Part shown: positions 1-5,635 of the stretch, one piece after another
Layout: the number at the start of each line of letters is the position of its first letter
Numbering within the stretch: position 1 is the first letter of the stretch
Translations under genes and position numbers: made by a program
Notes under the pieces: model-generated
Told to the model about the DNA's origin: nothing
What the model saw: the letters and a program-made list of their open reading frames with translations, nothing else
The model's database searches: none
Virus record (IMG/VR): IMGVR_UViG_2645727901_000019
Source of the DNA: a virus
Taxonomy: Duplodnaviria > Heunggongvirae > Uroviricota > Caudoviricetes
Strand: one strand, 5' to 3'
Length of the DNA: 5,635 nucleotides

Positions 1-78
1 TCGCTGTCGTTCTCAAAATCGGTGGAGCTGCATGACAAAGTCATCGGGCATTATCTGAACATAAAACACTATCAATAA
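1..78 (+). CDS. Possible 3' end of an upstream gene (partial, 25 codons); product unknown
   Basis: Frame +1 is open from base 1 to TAA at 76-78 (SLSFSKSVELHDKVIGHYLNIKHYQ*); no start inside the window. May instead be part of a frame-disrupted gene continuing in frame 0 (36-314). Confidence 0.25.
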   Translation, partial: SLSFSKSVELHDKVIGHYLNIKHYQ

Positions 79-152
79 GTTGGAGTCATTACCTTGCCTT
101 ACAACAGTATATTGAATGGAATTTAATTCAAAAATACGGCGAAGCTGAAGGA

Positions 153-314
153 ATGGGAAGAGCGCTGTTTCTTTATCAGAAAATGCTCACTACTTCCCCT
201 GATAAAGGTTTCATTCTTTCAGATATGGGTCGAGAAGGGCTTGAAATCCTTCTGGATGAAATTATTAACGAAATGAATACTCATGGCATGCAATCCGAAA
301 CAGATATTAAGTAA
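153..314 (+). CDS. Possible small hypothetical protein (53 aa)
   Basis: First ATG of a frame-0 ORF open from 36 to TAA 312-314 (MGRALFLYQKMLTTSPDKGFILSDMGREGLEILLDEIINEMNTHGMQSETDIK). GAAGGA lies directly against the ATG, so SD spacing is poor. Low-GC segment. Weak call. Confidence 0.25.
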   Translation: MGRALFLYQKMLTTSPDKGFILSDMGREGLEILLDEIINEMNTHGMQSETDIK

Positions 315-324
315 AAGGGACCAC

Positions 325-573
325 ATGACCGTTATCGAGTATATCCAGGAAAATCCAGATTGCAGTAGAGAAGATATATCCCTCGCACTTGGAAGAAGCG
401 CAACTTCTATCAGTAATGAATTATCACGGTTATTGTGGAATGGGTTAATAGTACGAACTGGAGAAAAAAACAAAATGATTCTGTACTGCGTAAACAATCT
501 GCCGTTTGGATACAGCAATCCCCTAAGTGTTATGTTCAACCAGTTACTTAAACAGGTAAGAAATGGCAACTGA
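325..573 (+). CDS. Small winged-helix-turn-helix DNA-binding protein (82 aa), function unknown
   Basis: ATG 325 preceded by AAGGGA (315-320). Translation MTVIEYIQENPDCSREDISLALGRSATSISNELSRLLWNGLIVRTGEKNKMILY... has the helix-turn-helix-wing pattern of MarR/ArsR-like wHTH proteins (recognition-helix candidate SISNELSRL, wing IVRTGEKNKMILY). An in-frame ATG at 283 lacks an SD. Lies in the low-GC segment. Confidence 0.6.
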   Translation: MTVIEYIQENPDCSREDISLALGRSATSISNELSRLLWNGLIVRTGEKNKMILYCVNNLPFGYSNPLSVMFNQLLKQVRNGN

Positions 574-880
574 CTCACAACTAACCATAGAAACGGCCCT
601 GAATGTCGGCCTGGCGCTCCTTGGTTATTTTTACATCGTGTTCTGCAGCGGACGGTGGCTGTCGCTGTTGTTCCTGAAAAAATGGAATAAACGCCGTAAG
701 CAGGATGAACGCCAGAAGGCAATGAATGCGTTTTCCGAAGCCTTCGGAATTGACGGCATGGAACCAGGGGATCCAGCTCGCGCAATCAGCAGAGGGGGTG
801 TAGTAATCCTTGTATATCGGAGTGAAGAGAAAAATGACGATCACAAAACAACGAGTAGAAAAAATCATATATCGCCATGA
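563..880 (+). CDS. Small membrane protein (105 aa): one long hydrophobic helix then a basic/charged tail
   Basis: ATG 563 with AGGT 5 nt upstream; overlaps the wHTH stop (TGA 571-573) by 11 nt. Residues ~11-38 (TALNVGLALLGYFYIVFCSGRWLSLLFL) are hydrophobic, followed by KKWNKRRKQDERQK. Codon usage resembles neighbouring genes. Confidence 0.5.
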   Translation: MATDSQLTIETALNVGLALLGYFYIVFCSGRWLSLLFLKKWNKRRKQDERQKAMNAFSEAFGIDGMEPGDPARAISRGGVVILVYRSEEKNDDHKTTSRKNHISP

Positions 881-1148
881 AATGGGACTGAACAGCGATG
901 TCACTGCCGAAGAGGTTTATGACCTGGCTGTACTGGCGCTGAATTTATCAAATATCGCAAACCTGAAGCGATACGAGCTTGATATGGATGGTTGCGACTC
1001 GTGCGGTCAGGATTGTGGCGCAGATATGACTGAAAATCCTGATGGTGATTATGTCCTGTTTGATGACGTGGTTAAGTTGTTTGAATTTGATACAACCACT
1101 CAAAAGTTAGAAATCCCGGCAAAGGAGGCTGCCAGTGAGCAAGATTGA
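834..1148 (+). CDS. Hypothetical acidic protein (104 aa)
   Basis: First ATG (834) of the ORF, with GGAG (819-822) and GAAGAG upstream; stop TGA 1146-1148. Alternative start ATG 882 lies 1 nt after the upstream stop (ccATGAaATGg). Acidic, Cys-containing segment DMDGCDSCGQDCGADMTENPDGDY. No family recognised. Confidence 0.55.
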   Translation: MTITKQRVEKIIYRHEMGLNSDVTAEEVYDLAVLALNLSNIANLKRYELDMDGCDSCGQDCGADMTENPDGDYVLFDDVVKLFEFDTTTQKLEIPAKEAASEQD

Positions 1149-1177
1149 CTATCAGGCACTGCGCGAGGCGGCGGAAC
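1119..1177 (+). repeat. Direct repeat copy A (59 bp): RBS plus first ~14 codons of an Ea22-like N-terminal module
   Basis: Base-by-base alignment with 1804-1862 gives 50/59 identical (~85%). Identity starts abruptly at GCAAAGGAGGC and decays after GCGGAAC. Confidence 0.85.
1122..1128 (+). promoter_or_regulatory. Consensus Shine-Dalgarno AAGGAGG for GTG start at 1135
   Basis: Perfect AAGGAGG with 6-nt spacing to GTG; embedded in the 3' end of the upstream CDS. Confidence 0.6.
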
Positions 1178-1320
1178 AGGCAACGCAAGATGAATGGGTA
1201 GCATATATTTTGCCGGGTCATAACGGCATTTATCCTGCGCGCACGTCTGAGGGTAGGCATTGTGCGGATACTTTATTGACTGGCCTGGCGTCTGTCAGGG
1301 GCGGGAGAGCATCAACATGA
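1135..1320 (+). CDS. Ea22-like N-terminal module, truncated (61 codons); possibly a gene fragment or pseudogene
   Basis: GTG 1135 sits 6 nt after a perfect AAGGAGG (1122-1128). N-terminus MSKIDYQALREAAEQATQDEW is paralogous to the N-terminus of the 1820-2305 product (MSEINYQALREVAERA). The ORF stops at TGA 1318-1320 after a tail that does not resemble the paralogue. Confidence 0.45.
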   Translation: MSKIDYQALREAAEQATQDEWVAYILPGHNGIYPARTSEGRHCADTLLTGLASVRGGRAST

Positions 1321-1823
1321 GCATCAGAACCTACGCAGTGAATTGCAATGACGCATGGCTAAACACCGAAGGTGATGACATCTCCGGCTCATACGTTAAG
1401 TACAAAGACCATCAGGAAGTGGTTGCCGCTCTTGAGGCCAAGTGCGCGGCGCTGGCAGCGGAGAATGCGGGAATAAAGTCTGCAATTCCAGAATCACGGG
1501 ATATTGAAGATGACAATGACAATATGGATGACGTATCTCTCGCGGAAGACTTCGGGTTCAATCATGCAATAGAACGGATGAGGAGACAGATACCTGAAAC
1601 GCCAACCACTGATGCTTTCCTGGCTGAAGTCCGGGCGCAGGGGGTGGATGCTGCTATAGAAGCTGCAAAAAATCTGGTGGCCCAAGAATATGAGTATAAG
1701 GATTTCAAAGCGGCGCAGAGTGATTGCTGTATGTACCCTGGTTCAGACCTGGTAGGGAAGGTTGAAATGACTGAGTGGTTAGTTGACTTTGCTGCCCAGC
1801 TTCGCAAAGGAGGCAACCAGTGA
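1317..1823 (+). CDS. Hypothetical protein (168 aa); possibly the displaced C-terminal part of an Ea22-like gene
   Basis: ATG 1317 overlaps the upstream TGA (ATGA); GGGAGAG SD 7 nt upstream. The segment HQEVVAALEAKCAALAAEN resembles PETVLALLDERERN in the 1820-2305 paralogue. Stop TGA 1821-1823 overlaps the next GTG start (GTGA). Confidence 0.6.
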   Translation: MSIRTYAVNCNDAWLNTEGDDISGSYVKYKDHQEVVAALEAKCAALAAENAGIKSAIPESRDIEDDNDNMDDVSLAEDFGFNHAIERMRRQIPETPTTDAFLAEVRAQGVDAAIEAAKNLVAQEYEYKDFKAAQSDCCMYPGSDLVGKVEMTEWLVDFAAQLRKGGNQ

Positions 1824-1862
1824 GCGAAATTAATTACCAGGCACTGCGTGAGGTGGCGGAAC
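1804..1862 (+). repeat. Direct repeat copy B (59 bp), paralogous to 1119-1177
   Basis: Same alignment as copy A. AAGGAGG and the GTG start are at identical relative positions in both copies. Confidence 0.85.
1807..1813 (+). promoter_or_regulatory. Consensus Shine-Dalgarno AAGGAGG for GTG start at 1820
   Basis: Perfect AAGGAGG with 6-nt spacing to GTG; paralogous to the site at 1122-1128. Confidence 0.65.
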
Positions 1863-2305
1863 GTGCAATTCCAGCAATGGAACGCCTGTTAATGTTGCCA
1901 GCTGATGATGACTTGTTAAGTGAACAGGAACTTAAAGATTACGGTGTGGATATTGATGCGCTCAACGCCTTCAAATTTCTGACCGGACCAGAAACCGTGC
2001 TGGCACTGCTGGATGAACGGGAAAGAAACCTGCAATACATCAAAAGCCGCGATCAGGAGAACGAGGATATTGCGCTAACGGTAGGGAAGCTGCGCGTTGA
2101 GCTTGAAGCAGAAAAACAGCGGGCAAAAGTTCTATTTATGGAAAATGCTCGGCTTAAGTCAGGCATAGCCGGTCTGATACACCTCGGTATTCGATATGCA
2201 GATGTTGAGGTCATGAAAATTGCTGGAGATGCCCAGCTTTCTACCCCATGCACTGACAGCATCATAAACAGCATTGCAACAGGCATTCGCATCAAAGGAG
2301 AGTGA
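1820..2305 (+). CDS. ead/Ea22-like family protein (161 aa) with a coiled-coil-like centre
   Basis: GTG 1820 sits 6 nt after AAGGAGG (1807-1813). N-terminus MSEINYQALREVAERA and internal PETVLALLDERE match my recollection of lambdoid-prophage Ea22-like proteins. Heptad-like charged stretch KLRVELEAEKQRAKVLFMENARLK. Stop TGA 2303-2305. Confidence 0.75.
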   Translation: MSEINYQALREVAERAIPAMERLLMLPADDDLLSEQELKDYGVDIDALNAFKFLTGPETVLALLDERERNLQYIKSRDQENEDIALTVGKLRVELEAEKQRAKVLFMENARLKSGIAGLIHLGIRYADVEVMKIAGDAQLSTPCTDSIINSIATGIRIKGE

Positions 2306-2306
2306 T

Positions 2307-2822
2307 ATGGCGTTAACACACCACGAACTCTGTCAGATTGCGTACAAGTTCCTTAAGCGCAACGGGTTCAAGGTTTGCTTTCATGACCGCTTTGTTGCTG
2401 TAACCAGTACCGGAGAACAGCCAGATGCTATGGGATTCAGAAATTCAGCATCATGCCTGATAGAGGCGAAGTGTTCTCGTGCTGACTTGTTGGCAGATAG
2501 AAAAAAGCGTTTCCGTAAAAATCCCTCACTTGGCATGGGCGACTGGCGATTCTTTATTAGTGAGCCGGAAATTATTTCAGTTGAGGATTTACCTCCCGGC
2601 TGGGGATTACTTCACGTTGTTAACGGAAGAGTACGGAAAGTACATGGATGGCCCAGGGGTAATTGCTGTTGGGGTAATCCTGACGATAAGCCATTTACTG
2701 GGAATAAGCAGGTTGAATGCGATTACATGTTATCTGCATTAAGGCGCATGGAGTTGAGAGGGCACCTTAATGAAATATATGACGGTGTGATTGTTAATAA
2801 GAAAGAAGGAAACGCGGCATGA
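2307..2822 (+). CDS. Putative PD-(D/E)xK-fold nuclease (171 aa; Hjc/VRR-NUC-like N-terminal core plus Cys/Trp-rich C-terminal region)
   Basis: ATG 2307 lies 1 nt after the upstream stop, with AAGGAG (2295-2300) upstream. Residues 5-60 show helix(E7)-PD(39-40)-x12-EAK(53-55): HELCQIAYKFLKRNGF...QPDAMGF...LIEAKCSRADL. C-terminal part includes GWPRGNCCWGNPDD. An upstream in-frame TTG at 2274 lacks an SD. Confidence 0.7.
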   Translation: MALTHHELCQIAYKFLKRNGFKVCFHDRFVAVTSTGEQPDAMGFRNSASCLIEAKCSRADLLADRKKRFRKNPSLGMGDWRFFISEPEIISVEDLPPGWGLLHVVNGRVRKVHGWPRGNCCWGNPDDKPFTGNKQVECDYMLSALRRMELRGHLNEIYDGVIVNKKEGNAA

Positions 2823-3577
2823 TCACTATTACCAAAGGGCGACTGCTGACAATCAAGCAGTGGCGCGAAACATACGGACCGGGTAGCAACGTTGTACTGC
2901 CAGCAGAAGAAGCGGAAGAACTGGCACGAATTGCACTGGTATCGCTGGAAGCAGAGCCGGTGGCAAAGATTATAGCTCATTACCCATTAGGAGTTGACGT
3001 AGGCAAACAAAAGTTCGTACAGGCCATTGGAGAGCTTCCTGACTTTGGCGGATATCTATTTGCCGCCCCGCCAGCGCCGGTAGTGCCGGAAGAAGCAACT
3101 CCGGAAAACGTAGAAATGCTCTCTGGCTATGTTTCCACGTACAAATTAACCGATAGCGAGCGCGATATTGCTGCCGAAATATGGAACGCCTGCCGCACCG
3201 CCATGCTTCAGTCCGGAAACTTTCGGGAAAGCAAGAATTCGTCAACCAATAATTTTCGGGAAATCCCGGAAGCGTCAACCAGCTCTCCGGTAACTCCGGC
3301 TCTTCTGCCTGGTGGTTTCACCATTGAGGAGGCGAAGGAATTACATGAAGACCTGGTACGCAGCCACATAAGCAAGGCCTTAAGTGGCGAAAAGATGAAA
3401 AAGAAAGATCGCGATGCTGATTTGCGCTGGATTCATGGCGTTATAGTTCAGGCAGCGTGGTTTGTAAAAGCATCACTGGAGCAGAATGCACTATCGGGCA
3501 ACTCTCCGGTAACTCCGGATGGTTGGATAAGCTGTAGTGAGCGAATGCCGGACGACAGGCAGGAGGTGAATCAATGA
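2819..3577 (+). CDS. Hypothetical prophage protein (252 aa) with an internal repeat-rich linker; ends just after a PDGWISCSERMPDD motif
   Basis: ATG 2819 overlaps the upstream TGA (ATGA); GAAGGAAA SD. Contains a 33-bp tandem repeat (FRESKNSSTNN / FREIPEASTSS) and a 17-bp perfect direct repeat in frame 219 bp apart. The C-terminal motif resembles, from memory, the start of a DUF551-type prophage domain. Stop TGA 3575-3577. Confidence 0.7.
   Translation: MITITKGRLLTIKQWRETYGPGSNVVLPAEEAEELARIALVSLEAEPVAKIIAHYPLGVDVGKQKFVQAIGELPDFGGYLFAAPPAPVVPEEATPENVEMLSGYVSTYKLTDSERDIAAEIWNACRTAMLQSGNFRESKNSSTNNFREIPEASTSSPVTPALLPGGFTIEEAKELHEDLVRSHISKALSGEKMKKKDRDADLRWIHGVIVQAAWFVKASLEQNALSGNSPVTPDGWISCSERMPDDRQEVNQ
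3221..3286 (+). repeat. Imperfect 33-bp tandem repeat (2 units) inside the 2819-3577 CDS
   Basis: TTTCGGGAAA recurs at 3221 and 3254 and CGTCAACCA at 3240 and 3273, both with period 33 bp (in frame, 11 codons). Confidence 0.6.
3283..3299 (+). repeat. 17-bp perfect direct repeat, copy 1 (CTCTCCGGTAACTCCGG)
   Basis: Identical 17-mer recurs at 3502-3518, 219 bp (73 codons) downstream in the same frame of the same CDS; flanking bases differ on both sides. Confidence 0.9.
3502..3518 (+). repeat. 17-bp perfect direct repeat, copy 2 (CTCTCCGGTAACTCCGG)
   Basis: See copy 1. Encodes SPVTP in both places (SSPVTPALLPGG vs NSPVTPDGW). Confidence 0.9.
3561..3568 (+). promoter_or_regulatory. Strong Shine-Dalgarno AGGAGGTG for the 27-codon peptide gene
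   Basis: AGGAGGTG lies 5 nt upstream of ATG 3574, inside the last codons of the preceding CDS. Confidence 0.55.
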
Positions 3578-3657
3578 GCTGGCCTGATGCAATCGTAACT
3601 CTGGGGGTGGTATTCGCAGCAGCGTTTGTTGTGTTCTCGATTTGTCGATGGGGATAA
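3574..3657 (+). CDS. Small hydrophobic single-helix peptide (27 aa), not in the supplied ORF track
   Basis: ATG 3574 overlaps the upstream TGA (ATGA); AGGAGGTG (3561-3568) lies 5 nt upstream. Translation MSWPDAIVTLGVVFAAAFVVFSICRWG, stop TAA 3655-3657. Fills the gap between two coupled genes exactly. Confidence 0.45.
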   Translation: MSWPDAIVTLGVVFAAAFVVFSICRWG

Positions 3658-3661
3658 CCAC

Positions 3662-3904
3662 ATGTTCGCTTTGATTCAACGCGGTCAGATATACACGGAC
3701 AGAGCTGGATACCCCGTGGTGATTACTCGCATCACTGAGCACTCAGTGTTCTTTCGACGGATGGACGGACGATCCGGGCGGGTACGCATTGGTGAGTTAA
3801 ACTGCCTGTTCGAACATATTGACCACCAGGAGTACCGCAAAATTCTCGCGGACACTGAGCAGGAAAAGCACCTGAAAAAATTACGAGCCATAAAAAGGAA
3901 GTAA
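3662..3904 (+). CDS. Small hypothetical prophage protein (80 aa)
   Basis: ATG 3662 lies 4 nt after the peptide stop; GGGGA upstream. Translation MFALIQRGQIYTDRAGYPVVITRITEHSVFFRRMDGRSGRVRIGELNCLFEHIDHQEYRK... Possibly a DUF4222-like small prophage protein (recollection only). ORF-track start 3626 is TTG without an SD. Confidence 0.6.
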   Translation: MFALIQRGQIYTDRAGYPVVITRITEHSVFFRRMDGRSGRVRIGELNCLFEHIDHQEYRKILADTEQEKHLKKLRAIKRK

Positions 3905-3907
3905 AGA

Positions 3908-4042
3908 ATGAATAAAGCATTTGAACGATGGGTCCACCAACGTTACGGCAATCGCTATGACCTGACGCGAGATGTTGACGGCTTCTACTGTCGTGAAGTT
4001 GTGAAGCGAATGTTTGAAGTGTGGTGCCACTGCCGTGGATGA
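3908..4042 (+). CDS. Small Cys/His-containing protein (44 aa), unknown function
   Basis: ATG 3908 with AAGGAAG SD (3895-3901), 3 nt after the upstream TAA. Translation MNKAFERWVHQRYGNRYDLTRDVDGFYCREVVKRMFEVWCHCRG; stop TGA 4040-4042. Below the ORF-track size cut-off. Confidence 0.45.
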   Translation: MNKAFERWVHQRYGNRYDLTRDVDGFYCREVVKRMFEVWCHCRG

Positions 4043-4060
4043 AAATTTTATGAGGTTGGC

Positions 4061-4315
4061 ATGCAGACAATCATCTATCAGATAACCCCCAGCAAATGGT
4101 GTACGGAGAGAGTCCTCATTGCATCAACAGGGCTAAAGCCTGGCACCATTGAGCGGGCAAGAAGAAAGTCATGGATGCAGGGAAAAGAATACCGCCATTA
4201 CGCTGTAGAAGGTGATCCGGGGCACTACAGTGAATGCCTGTACAACATCGAAGAAATTATGCGATGGATCGAAAACCAGAAACAACCAGGTGCCAAAAAT
4301 GCAAGTTCCGGTTAA
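4061..4315 (+). CDS. Excisionase-like protein (84 aa; recombination directionality factor candidate)
   Basis: Small basic protein immediately upstream of the integrase on the same strand. Translation ITPSKWCTERVLIASTGLKPGTIERARRKSWMQGKEYRHYAVEG...YNIEEIMRWIE matches my recollection of enterobacterial prophage excisionase-like proteins (DUF1233-type). GAGG 5 nt upstream of ATG 4061. Confidence 0.65.
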   Translation: MQTIIYQITPSKWCTERVLIASTGLKPGTIERARRKSWMQGKEYRHYAVEGDPGHYSECLYNIEEIMRWIENQKQPGAKNASSG

Positions 4316-4348: not shown

Positions 4349-5635
4349 ATGAGTAACGCATCATACCCGACAGGCGTTGAAAACCATGGAGGATCACTCC
4401 GTATATGGTTTCACTATAATGGCAAACGTGTCAGAGAAAACCTCGGTGTTCCTGACACAGCCAAAAACCGGAAGATCGCTGGTGAACTTCGCACTTCCGT
4501 TTGTTTTGCAATCAGAATGGGGAGTTTCGACTACGCCGCGCAGTTCCCTAATTCCCCTAACCTGAAACACTTTGGTCTGGGAAAAAGAGAGATAACCGTT
4601 AAGGCACTTTCGGAAAAATGGTTGGACCTTAAGAAAATTGAGATTTGTGCGAATGCACTTAATCGTTACCAGTCAGTAATTAAAAACATGTTGCCTATGT
4701 TGGGTGAGAAAAAACTGGTTTCATCCATAACAAAAGAGGATTTACTTTTCGCAAGGAGAGATTTGTTGACCGGTTACCAAAAGCTTTCTAATGGAAAGAT
4801 TTCTTCCATAAAAGGGCGCTCAGTGGTCACAGTAAACTACTATATGACAACCATAGCTGGAATGTTTCAATTTGCAACAGATAATGGTTATACCTCAGGA
4901 AACCCATTTAACGGTCTGGCACCCTTAAAAAAGTCCAAGGTAAAACCAGATCCTCTCACCCGTGACGAATTTATTCGTTTTATTGAAGCTTGCCGTCATC
5001 AACAAACAAAAAACCTGTGGATTCTCGCTGTATACACGGGTATTCGTCACGGGGAGCTGGTATCGCTGGCATGGGAAGATATAGATCTTAAAGCAAGGAC
5101 TATAACCATCCGTAGGAATTATACAAAACTTGGCGAATTCACTCCACCAAAAACCGATGCTGGCACCGGAAGGACAATTCATCTGGTTCAACCAGCTATT
5201 GATGCTCTTAAAAGTCAGGCGGAAATGACCATGCTTGGAAAGCAACATTCTGTAGAGGTAAAGCAGAGGGAATATGGGAGAAGTACTGTGCATAAATGCA
5301 CTTTTGTTTTTAGTCCTCAGGTAATAAAACAGCGGCAGTTTTCCGGACCGCACTATAAGGTTGACTCCATCAGGGAGTCATGGACAAGTATCTTAAAACG
5401 CGCAGGTCTGAGACACAGAAAATCGTACCAATCCAGGCATACTTATGCATGCTGGTCACTTGCCGCTGGAGCTAATCCTAGTTTTATCGCAAGCCAGATG
5501 GGCCACACAAACGCACAAATGGTATTCAATGTTTACGGAGCATGGATGAAAGACAACAATCACGAACAGATAGAACTCCTTAACAAAAGACTATCTGAAA
5601 GTGTCCCATGTATGCCCCATAAGAAAGCTGGGTAA
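4349..5635 (+). CDS. int: Tyrosine site-specific recombinase / phage integrase (428 aa)
   Basis: GGGAGG SD 5 nt upstream of ATG 4349. Catalytic-domain signatures: box I Arg in TGIRHGELVSLAWEDIDL, Lys in PPKTDAGTGRTIHL, box II YQSRHTYACWSL, then GHTNAQMVFNVYGAW with the tyrosine nucleophile. N-terminal ~70 aa resemble an arm-binding domain. Stop TAA is the last codon of the window. Confidence 0.95.
   Translation: MSNASYPTGVENHGGSLRIWFHYNGKRVRENLGVPDTAKNRKIAGELRTSVCFAIRMGSFDYAAQFPNSPNLKHFGLGKREITVKALSEKWLDLKKIEICANALNRYQSVIKNMLPMLGEKKLVSSITKEDLLFARRDLLTGYQKLSNGKISSIKGRSVVTVNYYMTTIAGMFQFATDNGYTSGNPFNGLAPLKKSKVKPDPLTRDEFIRFIEACRHQQTKNLWILAVYTGIRHGELVSLAWEDIDLKARTITIRRNYTKLGEFTPPKTDAGTGRTIHLVQPAIDALKSQAEMTMLGKQHSVEVKQREYGRSTVHKCTFVFSPQVIKQRQFSGPHYKVDSIRESWTSILKRAGLRHRKSYQSRHTYACWSLAAGANPSFIASQMGHTNAQMVFNVYGAWMKDNNHEQIELLNKRLSESVPCMPHKKAG

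Follow-up and report, generated by a model that had tools for sequence, protein, structure and literature searches.

The lambda protein Ren takes its name from resistance to Rex exclusion, and a literature search returned nothing on its mechanism. In the MarR architecture, N- and C-terminal helices form the dimer and the ligand pocket. A further point of reference for accessory phage genes is the moron, in its working definition 'usually independently expressed ... appears to be inserted' (PMC2629481). Here we analyse a stretch of 5,635 nucleotides (nt) from a tailed-phage record (IMGVR_UViG_2645727901_000019), hereafter the window, and in it a gene at positions 325-573 that encodes a winged-helix protein of 82 amino acids (aa) and lies in a segment of low guanine-plus-cytosine (GC) content at 61-600. 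The original prediction, made from the sequence alone, had taken 61-600 for a single insert. We found that it is made up of the end of an IS1 element (1-93), the tail of an interrupted early gene that we call p193 (94-314) and one intact gene (325-573), and that the low-GC segment is the product of ordinary lambdoid mosaicism and IS1 rather than a self-contained inserted unit. Judged by profile comparison and a structural model, the 82-aa protein is a minimal winged helix with an extra C-terminal helix, a predicted remote relative of Ren and no true MarR protein.

As reference we used the intact prophage of Escherichia coli O55:H7 RM12579 (locus L001), to which the window is 100% identical from position 94 onward, the match starting exactly at base 94. 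Window 94 corresponds to L001 6001, and window 325-573 to L001 6232-6480. In this prophage p193 is a 193-aa early gene (WP_001199104), with the small genes p62 and p68 just upstream of it. The RM12579 prophage adjoins mlrA, with its integrase and excisionase genes beside mlrA and its genes co-directional, and from the repressor to the integrase all genes share one orientation. The region lies within the early-left operon of a prophage of the lambdoid, Stx-phage-like type, which in its closest relatives is integrated beside mlrA. Prevalence was determined in 5426 complete E. coli genomes and in 50,697 phage records, gene order was compared over more than 200 related loci, and GC was computed for segments of the window and for 540-nt windows of the reference prophage. 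The features of the segment and its right-hand border are as follows.

1-93, + strand: right end of IS1, 100% identical to annotated IS1A/IS1B copies.
94-314, + strand: 3' remnant of p193, from codon 121 to the stop, inside the RM12579 coding sequence at L001 5640-6221.
153-314, + strand: open reading frame (ORF) of 53 aa, the first ATG-initiated stretch within the p193 remnant.
292-581, no strand: mosaic cassette with the winged-helix gene, delimited by blastn breakpoints.
315-320, + strand: likely ribosome-binding site AAGGGA, 4 nt 5' of the ATG at 325, as read from the sequence.
325-573, + strand: winged-helix gene, 82 aa, Ren-like, PHROG 1687, from a profile match, an AlphaFold model and the ratio of non-synonymous to synonymous substitution rates (dN/dS).
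563-880, + strand: DUF4752 gene, first of the higher-GC right block (Pfam DUF4752, E = 7e-37).

The winged-helix gene has a dN/dS of 0.18-0.23 against relatives that are 84-95% identical in DNA, and it is a real gene under purifying selection, the sole intact gene within the low-GC segment. It is left unannotated in the RefSeq record of RM12579. Its product matches PHROG 1687 (E = 7.9e-24), as do all 19 of the 19 family members compared, and the Pfam scores lie below the gathering thresholds (MarR_2, 21.4 versus 27 bits; MarR, 14.1 versus 24.6), as does a match to HTH_24. When 1.8 billion representative proteins were searched exhaustively with HMMER, only 36 relatives were recovered, about 15 of which are stand-alone proteins of 80-100 aa with 30-46% identity. 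Common to the family is a C-terminal motif, PFG(C/Y)xN...MFNQLL..R, carried on the helix predicted at residues 66-79.

That the gene encodes a winged helix-turn-helix protein, as had been proposed, was borne out by its AlphaFold model (predicted local distance difference test score, pLDDT, 87.6), which consists of a three-helix bundle (residues 3-9, 15-22 and 26-38), a two-stranded β-hairpin wing (42-48 and 51-56) and one C-terminal helix (66-79). Foldseek returned SlyA, MepR, YgaV, SmtB, CzrA and MexR with a probability of 1.00, and the core superposes on MexR, MepR and SlyA at 1.4-1.8 Å over 54-58 residues. Likeness to Z-DNA-binding domains (PKZ Zalpha, E = 1.4e-4) was taken as generic winged-helix similarity. 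PADLOC gave only generic winged-helix matches for this protein and none for p193, p62, p68, the DUF4752 protein or PHROG 3126, and NCBIfam gave no helpful match for the same set.

The comparison that points to Ren is that of profiles. Aligned with lambda Ren (NP_040633) in hhalign, the protein gave a probability of 88% and E = 3e-6 over 79 columns that include the C-terminal helix. Its match to PHROG 142 ('Ren-like exclusion protein') has E = 6e-5 and covers residues 2-55 only. In the reverse direction lambda Ren matches PHROG 1687 at 1.5e-10, and 9 of the 19 family members match PHROG 142.

To the left of this gene, positions 1-93 are a 100% match to the IS1A/IS1B copies annotated in 4963 of the 5426 E. 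coli genomes, in the same orientation as the operon. They contain what we take to be the last codons of insB, ending with TAA at 76-78, and presumably the terminal inverted repeat at 71-93. Because window 94 falls within the p193 coding sequence of RM12579, p193 is split by IS1 at codon 121; the intact gene matches PHROG 1515 (E = 3e-90). A possible small ORF at 153-314 had also been proposed, but this 53-aa ORF is a piece of the IS1-disrupted p193 remnant, and the identical ORF is called in other assemblies where p193 has a nonsense or frameshift lesion. An apparent natural fusion of p193 with the winged-helix gene (a 279-aa ORF in locus L005) is due to a single-base deletion in an A-run and was discarded as not meaningful. 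As for the junction itself, no complete E. coli genome spans window 1-420 across it, a 38-nt sequence over it has no exact match in the GTDB representative genomes, no IS1 is present in any displayed contig encoding the 53-aa ORF, and the second IS1 junction, which lies beyond the window, was not found. A simple insertion would show a 9-base-pair direct repeat of TTGCCTTAC along with the 5' part of p193, and any other flank would indicate a deletion.

The borders of the cassette were drawn from blastn comparisons with related loci. Similarity ends at 291 in two of them (L191 and L212) and begins again at 582 in four others (L098, L102, L122 and L133), so that 292-581 is a gene-sized mosaic cassette; further junctions were seen at 526 (L061) and 544 (L047). 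Relatives that break at 291 are 72-87% identical across the rest of the left block. In one class of gene order p68, p62 and p193 are followed by unrelated membrane and lipoprotein genes, and in other classes the DUF4752 gene is kept and is preceded by antirepressor-like and small zinc-finger genes. The cassette thus sits at the junction of an AT-rich (adenine- and thymine-rich) left block (p68, p62 and p193, near the immunity region) and a right block of approximately 48% GC (DUF4752 and Ea22-like genes). In not one of the more than 200 related loci does p193 directly adjoin DUF4752; each flank joins other modules, and since the flanks are never adjacent there is no empty site. In all lambdoid loci that carry it, the winged-helix gene directly follows p193.

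In the E. coli genomes the winged-helix gene was found in 140 of 5426, p193 in 203 and DUF4752 in 587, the distributions being nested, and many relatives have DUF4752 but lack the winged-helix gene. The phage records hold 24 copies of the winged-helix gene and 36 of p193, the same 10 records having both; in 26 of its 36 records p193 therefore has no winged-helix gene with it, and the winged-helix gene is without p193 in 14 of 24, P88-like Peduoviridae included. As to what the comparison of relatives had been expected to show, the gene is indeed accessory and its cassette gene-sized, but an insertion between conserved flanks was not found.

Base composition was as had been counted by hand, at about 38%: the computed GC of 61-600 is 0.381 (38.1%), versus 0.487 (48.7%) for 601-4300, and it is 0.387 for 94-600, with IS1 left out. 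Over 540-nt windows of the RM12579 prophage the mean GC is 0.519 with a standard deviation of 0.061, and only 1.2% of windows lie at or below 0.381. The dip at 61-600 is real and unusual, yet it is not unique. Nor is it limited to 61-600, as had been supposed; in the intact prophage low GC recurs intermittently over approximately 3 kilobases (kb) that begin at the 3' end of the repressor gene and extend to the winged-helix gene, and the integrase gene is also low (0.43 overall, and 0.365-0.38 at window 4600-4900). Individual values are 0.42 for the repressor gene, 0.386 for p68, 0.381 for p62, 0.367 for the p193 tail, 0.386 for the winged-helix gene and 0.478 for the DUF4752 gene, with the 5' two-thirds of p193 (0.45-0.48) forming a break in the tract. 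As the GC of the winged-helix gene is that of p62 and p68, composition does not set the gene apart from the left-hand block. The homologue in phage P88 has a GC of 0.53, which exceeds that of its P88 surroundings. Low GC characterises the lambdoid left-hand block, not the winged-helix family, and the GC step near 580 is the junction of two mosaic blocks.

The gene is tightly embedded among its neighbours: its start lies 10 nt past the p193 stop, and its 3' end shares 11 nt with the start of the DUF4752 gene. In a consensus scan no promoter-like or terminator-like site on the + strand flanks 325-573. Upstream, a strong intrinsic terminator stands right after the repressor gene and is followed by a near-consensus promoter-like site, TTGACA-17-TAATAT (L001 4127-4155), the whole lying at L001 4074-4200; beside this site is an ACTTGAT motif that recurs as ATCAAGT in the divergent (rightward) operator region. 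These sequence features suggest that phages of this type probably have their early-left promoter and operator at L001 4074-4200. As the winged-helix gene has neither a promoter nor a terminator to itself and is coupled to the neighbouring genes, we infer that it would be transcribed from this repressor-controlled early-left promoter, and the notion of a moron with independent expression does not agree with this arrangement.

Our preferred reading joins these points: a composite segment, a Ren-like accessory cassette, co-transcription from the early-left promoter and a role early in lytic growth, to which as a whole we give a probability of about 0.7. By this account IS1 would have entered codon 121 of p193, leaving the gene tail and then the intact 82-aa gene. 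The winged-helix gene would normally be transcribed from the early-left promoter some 2 kb upstream, and its expression would follow induction or infection and be absent from the quiescent prophage. IS1 upstream of genes is expected to be polar on an operon, and in this copy the element would cut the winged-helix gene off from its early-left promoter. By analogy with Ren and the P88-like homologues, the protein would most likely act early in lytic growth as a small accessory factor that binds DNA or a partner; we would suggest only with low confidence a specific role, possibly that of countering exclusion by resident prophages.

Several points weigh against this reading. With the second IS1 junction not found, IS1 may be the trace of a deletion rather than of a simple insertion. 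The link to Ren is remote, at approximately 20% identity, and in hhalign it was drawn with a single-sequence template; moreover, ren follows gene P in the rightward operon, whereas the window gene is in the leftward one. The consensus promoter scan is a weak test that an internal promoter could escape. Finally, some prophages (L059, L060 and related loci, and L047-L054) carry truncated winged-helix forms of 7, 50, 73 and 76 aa, the 50-aa form being due to a frameshift, the 73-aa form to a recombination junction at 544, and the 76-aa form lacking PFGYSN, so that the gene is dispensable in those prophages.

Other explanations have to be set beside it. The original prediction had proposed a horizontally acquired moron that, expressed from the prophage, could alter the transcription of the host or of superinfecting phages; as a classic moron it would be an independently transcribed unit. 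The gene is accessory among relatives, sits in a gene-sized cassette with tight breakpoints, is low in GC (0.386, the prophage mean being 0.517) and belongs to a family common to lambdoid and P88-like phages, and the category of PHROG 142 is 'moron, auxiliary metabolic gene and host takeover', all of which speaks for this reading. However, the definition requires usual independent expression and apparent insertion (PMC2629481), and the gene is flanked by no recognisable + strand promoter or terminator, is spaced at 10 nt from p193 and overlaps DUF4752 by 11 nt, is oriented as the operon is, and has flanks that are joined in no relative; its GC equals that of upstream p62 and p68, and its P88 homologue is above its surroundings in GC. 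We regard a classic moron as unlikely. Another possibility is that the dip reflects no more than the high AT content customary near the immunity region and in the integrase region of lambdoid phages, and that the gene, long established in the left block, was removed from some lineages by recombination. The breakpoint at 291, which parts the gene from p193 in relatives that retain the left block at the identities given above, and the interruption of the low-GC tract by the 5' two-thirds of p193 argue against this, and we consider it quite unlikely, even though the tract takes in some 3 kb, with the repressor gene at one end and the winged-helix gene at the other, p68, p62, the repressor and the integrase are all low in GC, and the step at about 580 coincides with the DUF4752-block junction.

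A two-gene module has also to be weighed, in which p193 and the winged-helix protein would form a pair, such as an effector that is toxic or causes abortive infection and a partner that regulates or neutralises it, and lesions in p193 would reflect selection against a harmful gene. The winged-helix gene directly follows p193, at a 10-nt spacer, in every lambdoid locus that has it, and in addition to the IS1 described here we found at least 8 different p193 lesions in near-identical prophages (L217-L223 and L233), in the part of p193 that corresponds to window 94-152 and to the sequence upstream of it; four are nonsense substitutions, three are frameshifts of a single base and one is another truncation (119-aa first ORF), in a sample that is biased by having been chosen via the leftover 53-aa ORF. 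The clustering of these lesions at p193 codons 115-140 was set aside as an ascertainment effect of searching with that ORF. Against the module stand the bias of the lesion set, the 0 of 34 distinct IMG/VR p193 variants that are broken, the listed complete genomes, which annotate p193 as intact, the lack of a PADLOC match for p193, and the phage records in which p193 (26/36) or the winged-helix gene (14/24) occurs alone. Given these largely separate distributions we rejected a toxin-antitoxin-like pairing as the principal explanation; we hold a two-gene module to be very unlikely, and the p193 lesions may be ordinary prophage decay.

Elsewhere in the window three further observations were made. 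At 1135-1823, an ORF of 61 aa and the adjacent one of 168 aa align with positions 1-45 and 48-138, respectively, of the Ead/Ea22 profile; together they look like one split Ea22-like gene, just upstream of a complete Ea22-like gene of 161 aa. At 2819-3577, the end of a 252-aa ORF covers no more than positions 1-16 of the DUF551 profile, and the ORFs of relatives are 308-314 aa long; as far as the sequence indicates, the C-terminus is probably truncated or recombined. At 2307-2822 there is an intact ORF of 171 aa with no family match, over the first 179 nt of which RefSeq places a 'frameshifted' pseudogene in RM12579; it contains IEAKCS, which we presume to resemble a nuclease motif.

The significance of these findings is small beyond annotation. 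They illustrate how a conspicuous fall in GC within a prophage early region may be pieced together from an insertion sequence end, a pseudogene tail and a small accessory gene, and need not be one acquired island, and they correct a 'MarR family' label to a minimal winged helix that appears remotely akin to lambda Ren. If the Ren-like link is true, the family would offer a second handle on how Ren-type proteins protect phages from exclusion. Although speculative, one may imagine a distinct Ren-like branch, marked by the PFG(C/Y)xN...MFNQLL..R tail, that moves between lambdoid and P2-like early operons and serves as a counter-defence against prophage exclusion, maybe together with the fold-orphan p193, whose inactivation by IS1 and by at least 8 lesions would reflect a cost to the lysogen; in this extended form we think the proposal improbable.

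Set against the known systems, the gene shares with lambdoid morons its presence as an accessory gene in only some relatives, its location within an operon and, relative to the prophage as a whole and to its right flank but not to the left-hand genes, an atypical composition, and differs from them in having no promoter or terminator of its own, in its translational coupling and in flanks that are never adjacent in relatives. With the MarR families (PF01047 and PF12802) it shares a winged-helix core that superposes well, and it is labelled 'MarR family transcriptional regulator' in GenBank in Stx1a phages (e.g. LC567819). However, apart from the sub-threshold Pfam scores, it has 82 aa compared with 134-147 residues in the MarR-family chains among the Foldseek matches, and its model is without the N- and C-terminal dimerisation helices. 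The homologue in P88-like Peduoviridae (P88 gp09, YP_009113052) is 43-46% identical over its full length, C-terminal motif included, and is likewise part of an early operon; in P88 itself it is found between cox and the replication gene, with a 4-nt overlap on each side, and is followed by an Ead/Ea22-like gene. P88 differs in being a P2-like myovirus, in having neither p193 nor DUF4752 as neighbours and in the GC of its gene, 0.53 and not 0.39. The motif PFG(C/Y)xN...MFNQLL is not evident in lambda Ren, but like the window gene Ren is non-essential and is encoded inside an early operon, and both are small proteins of temperate phages (96 versus 82 aa) in which an N-terminal winged helix appears to be joined to a C-terminal helix.
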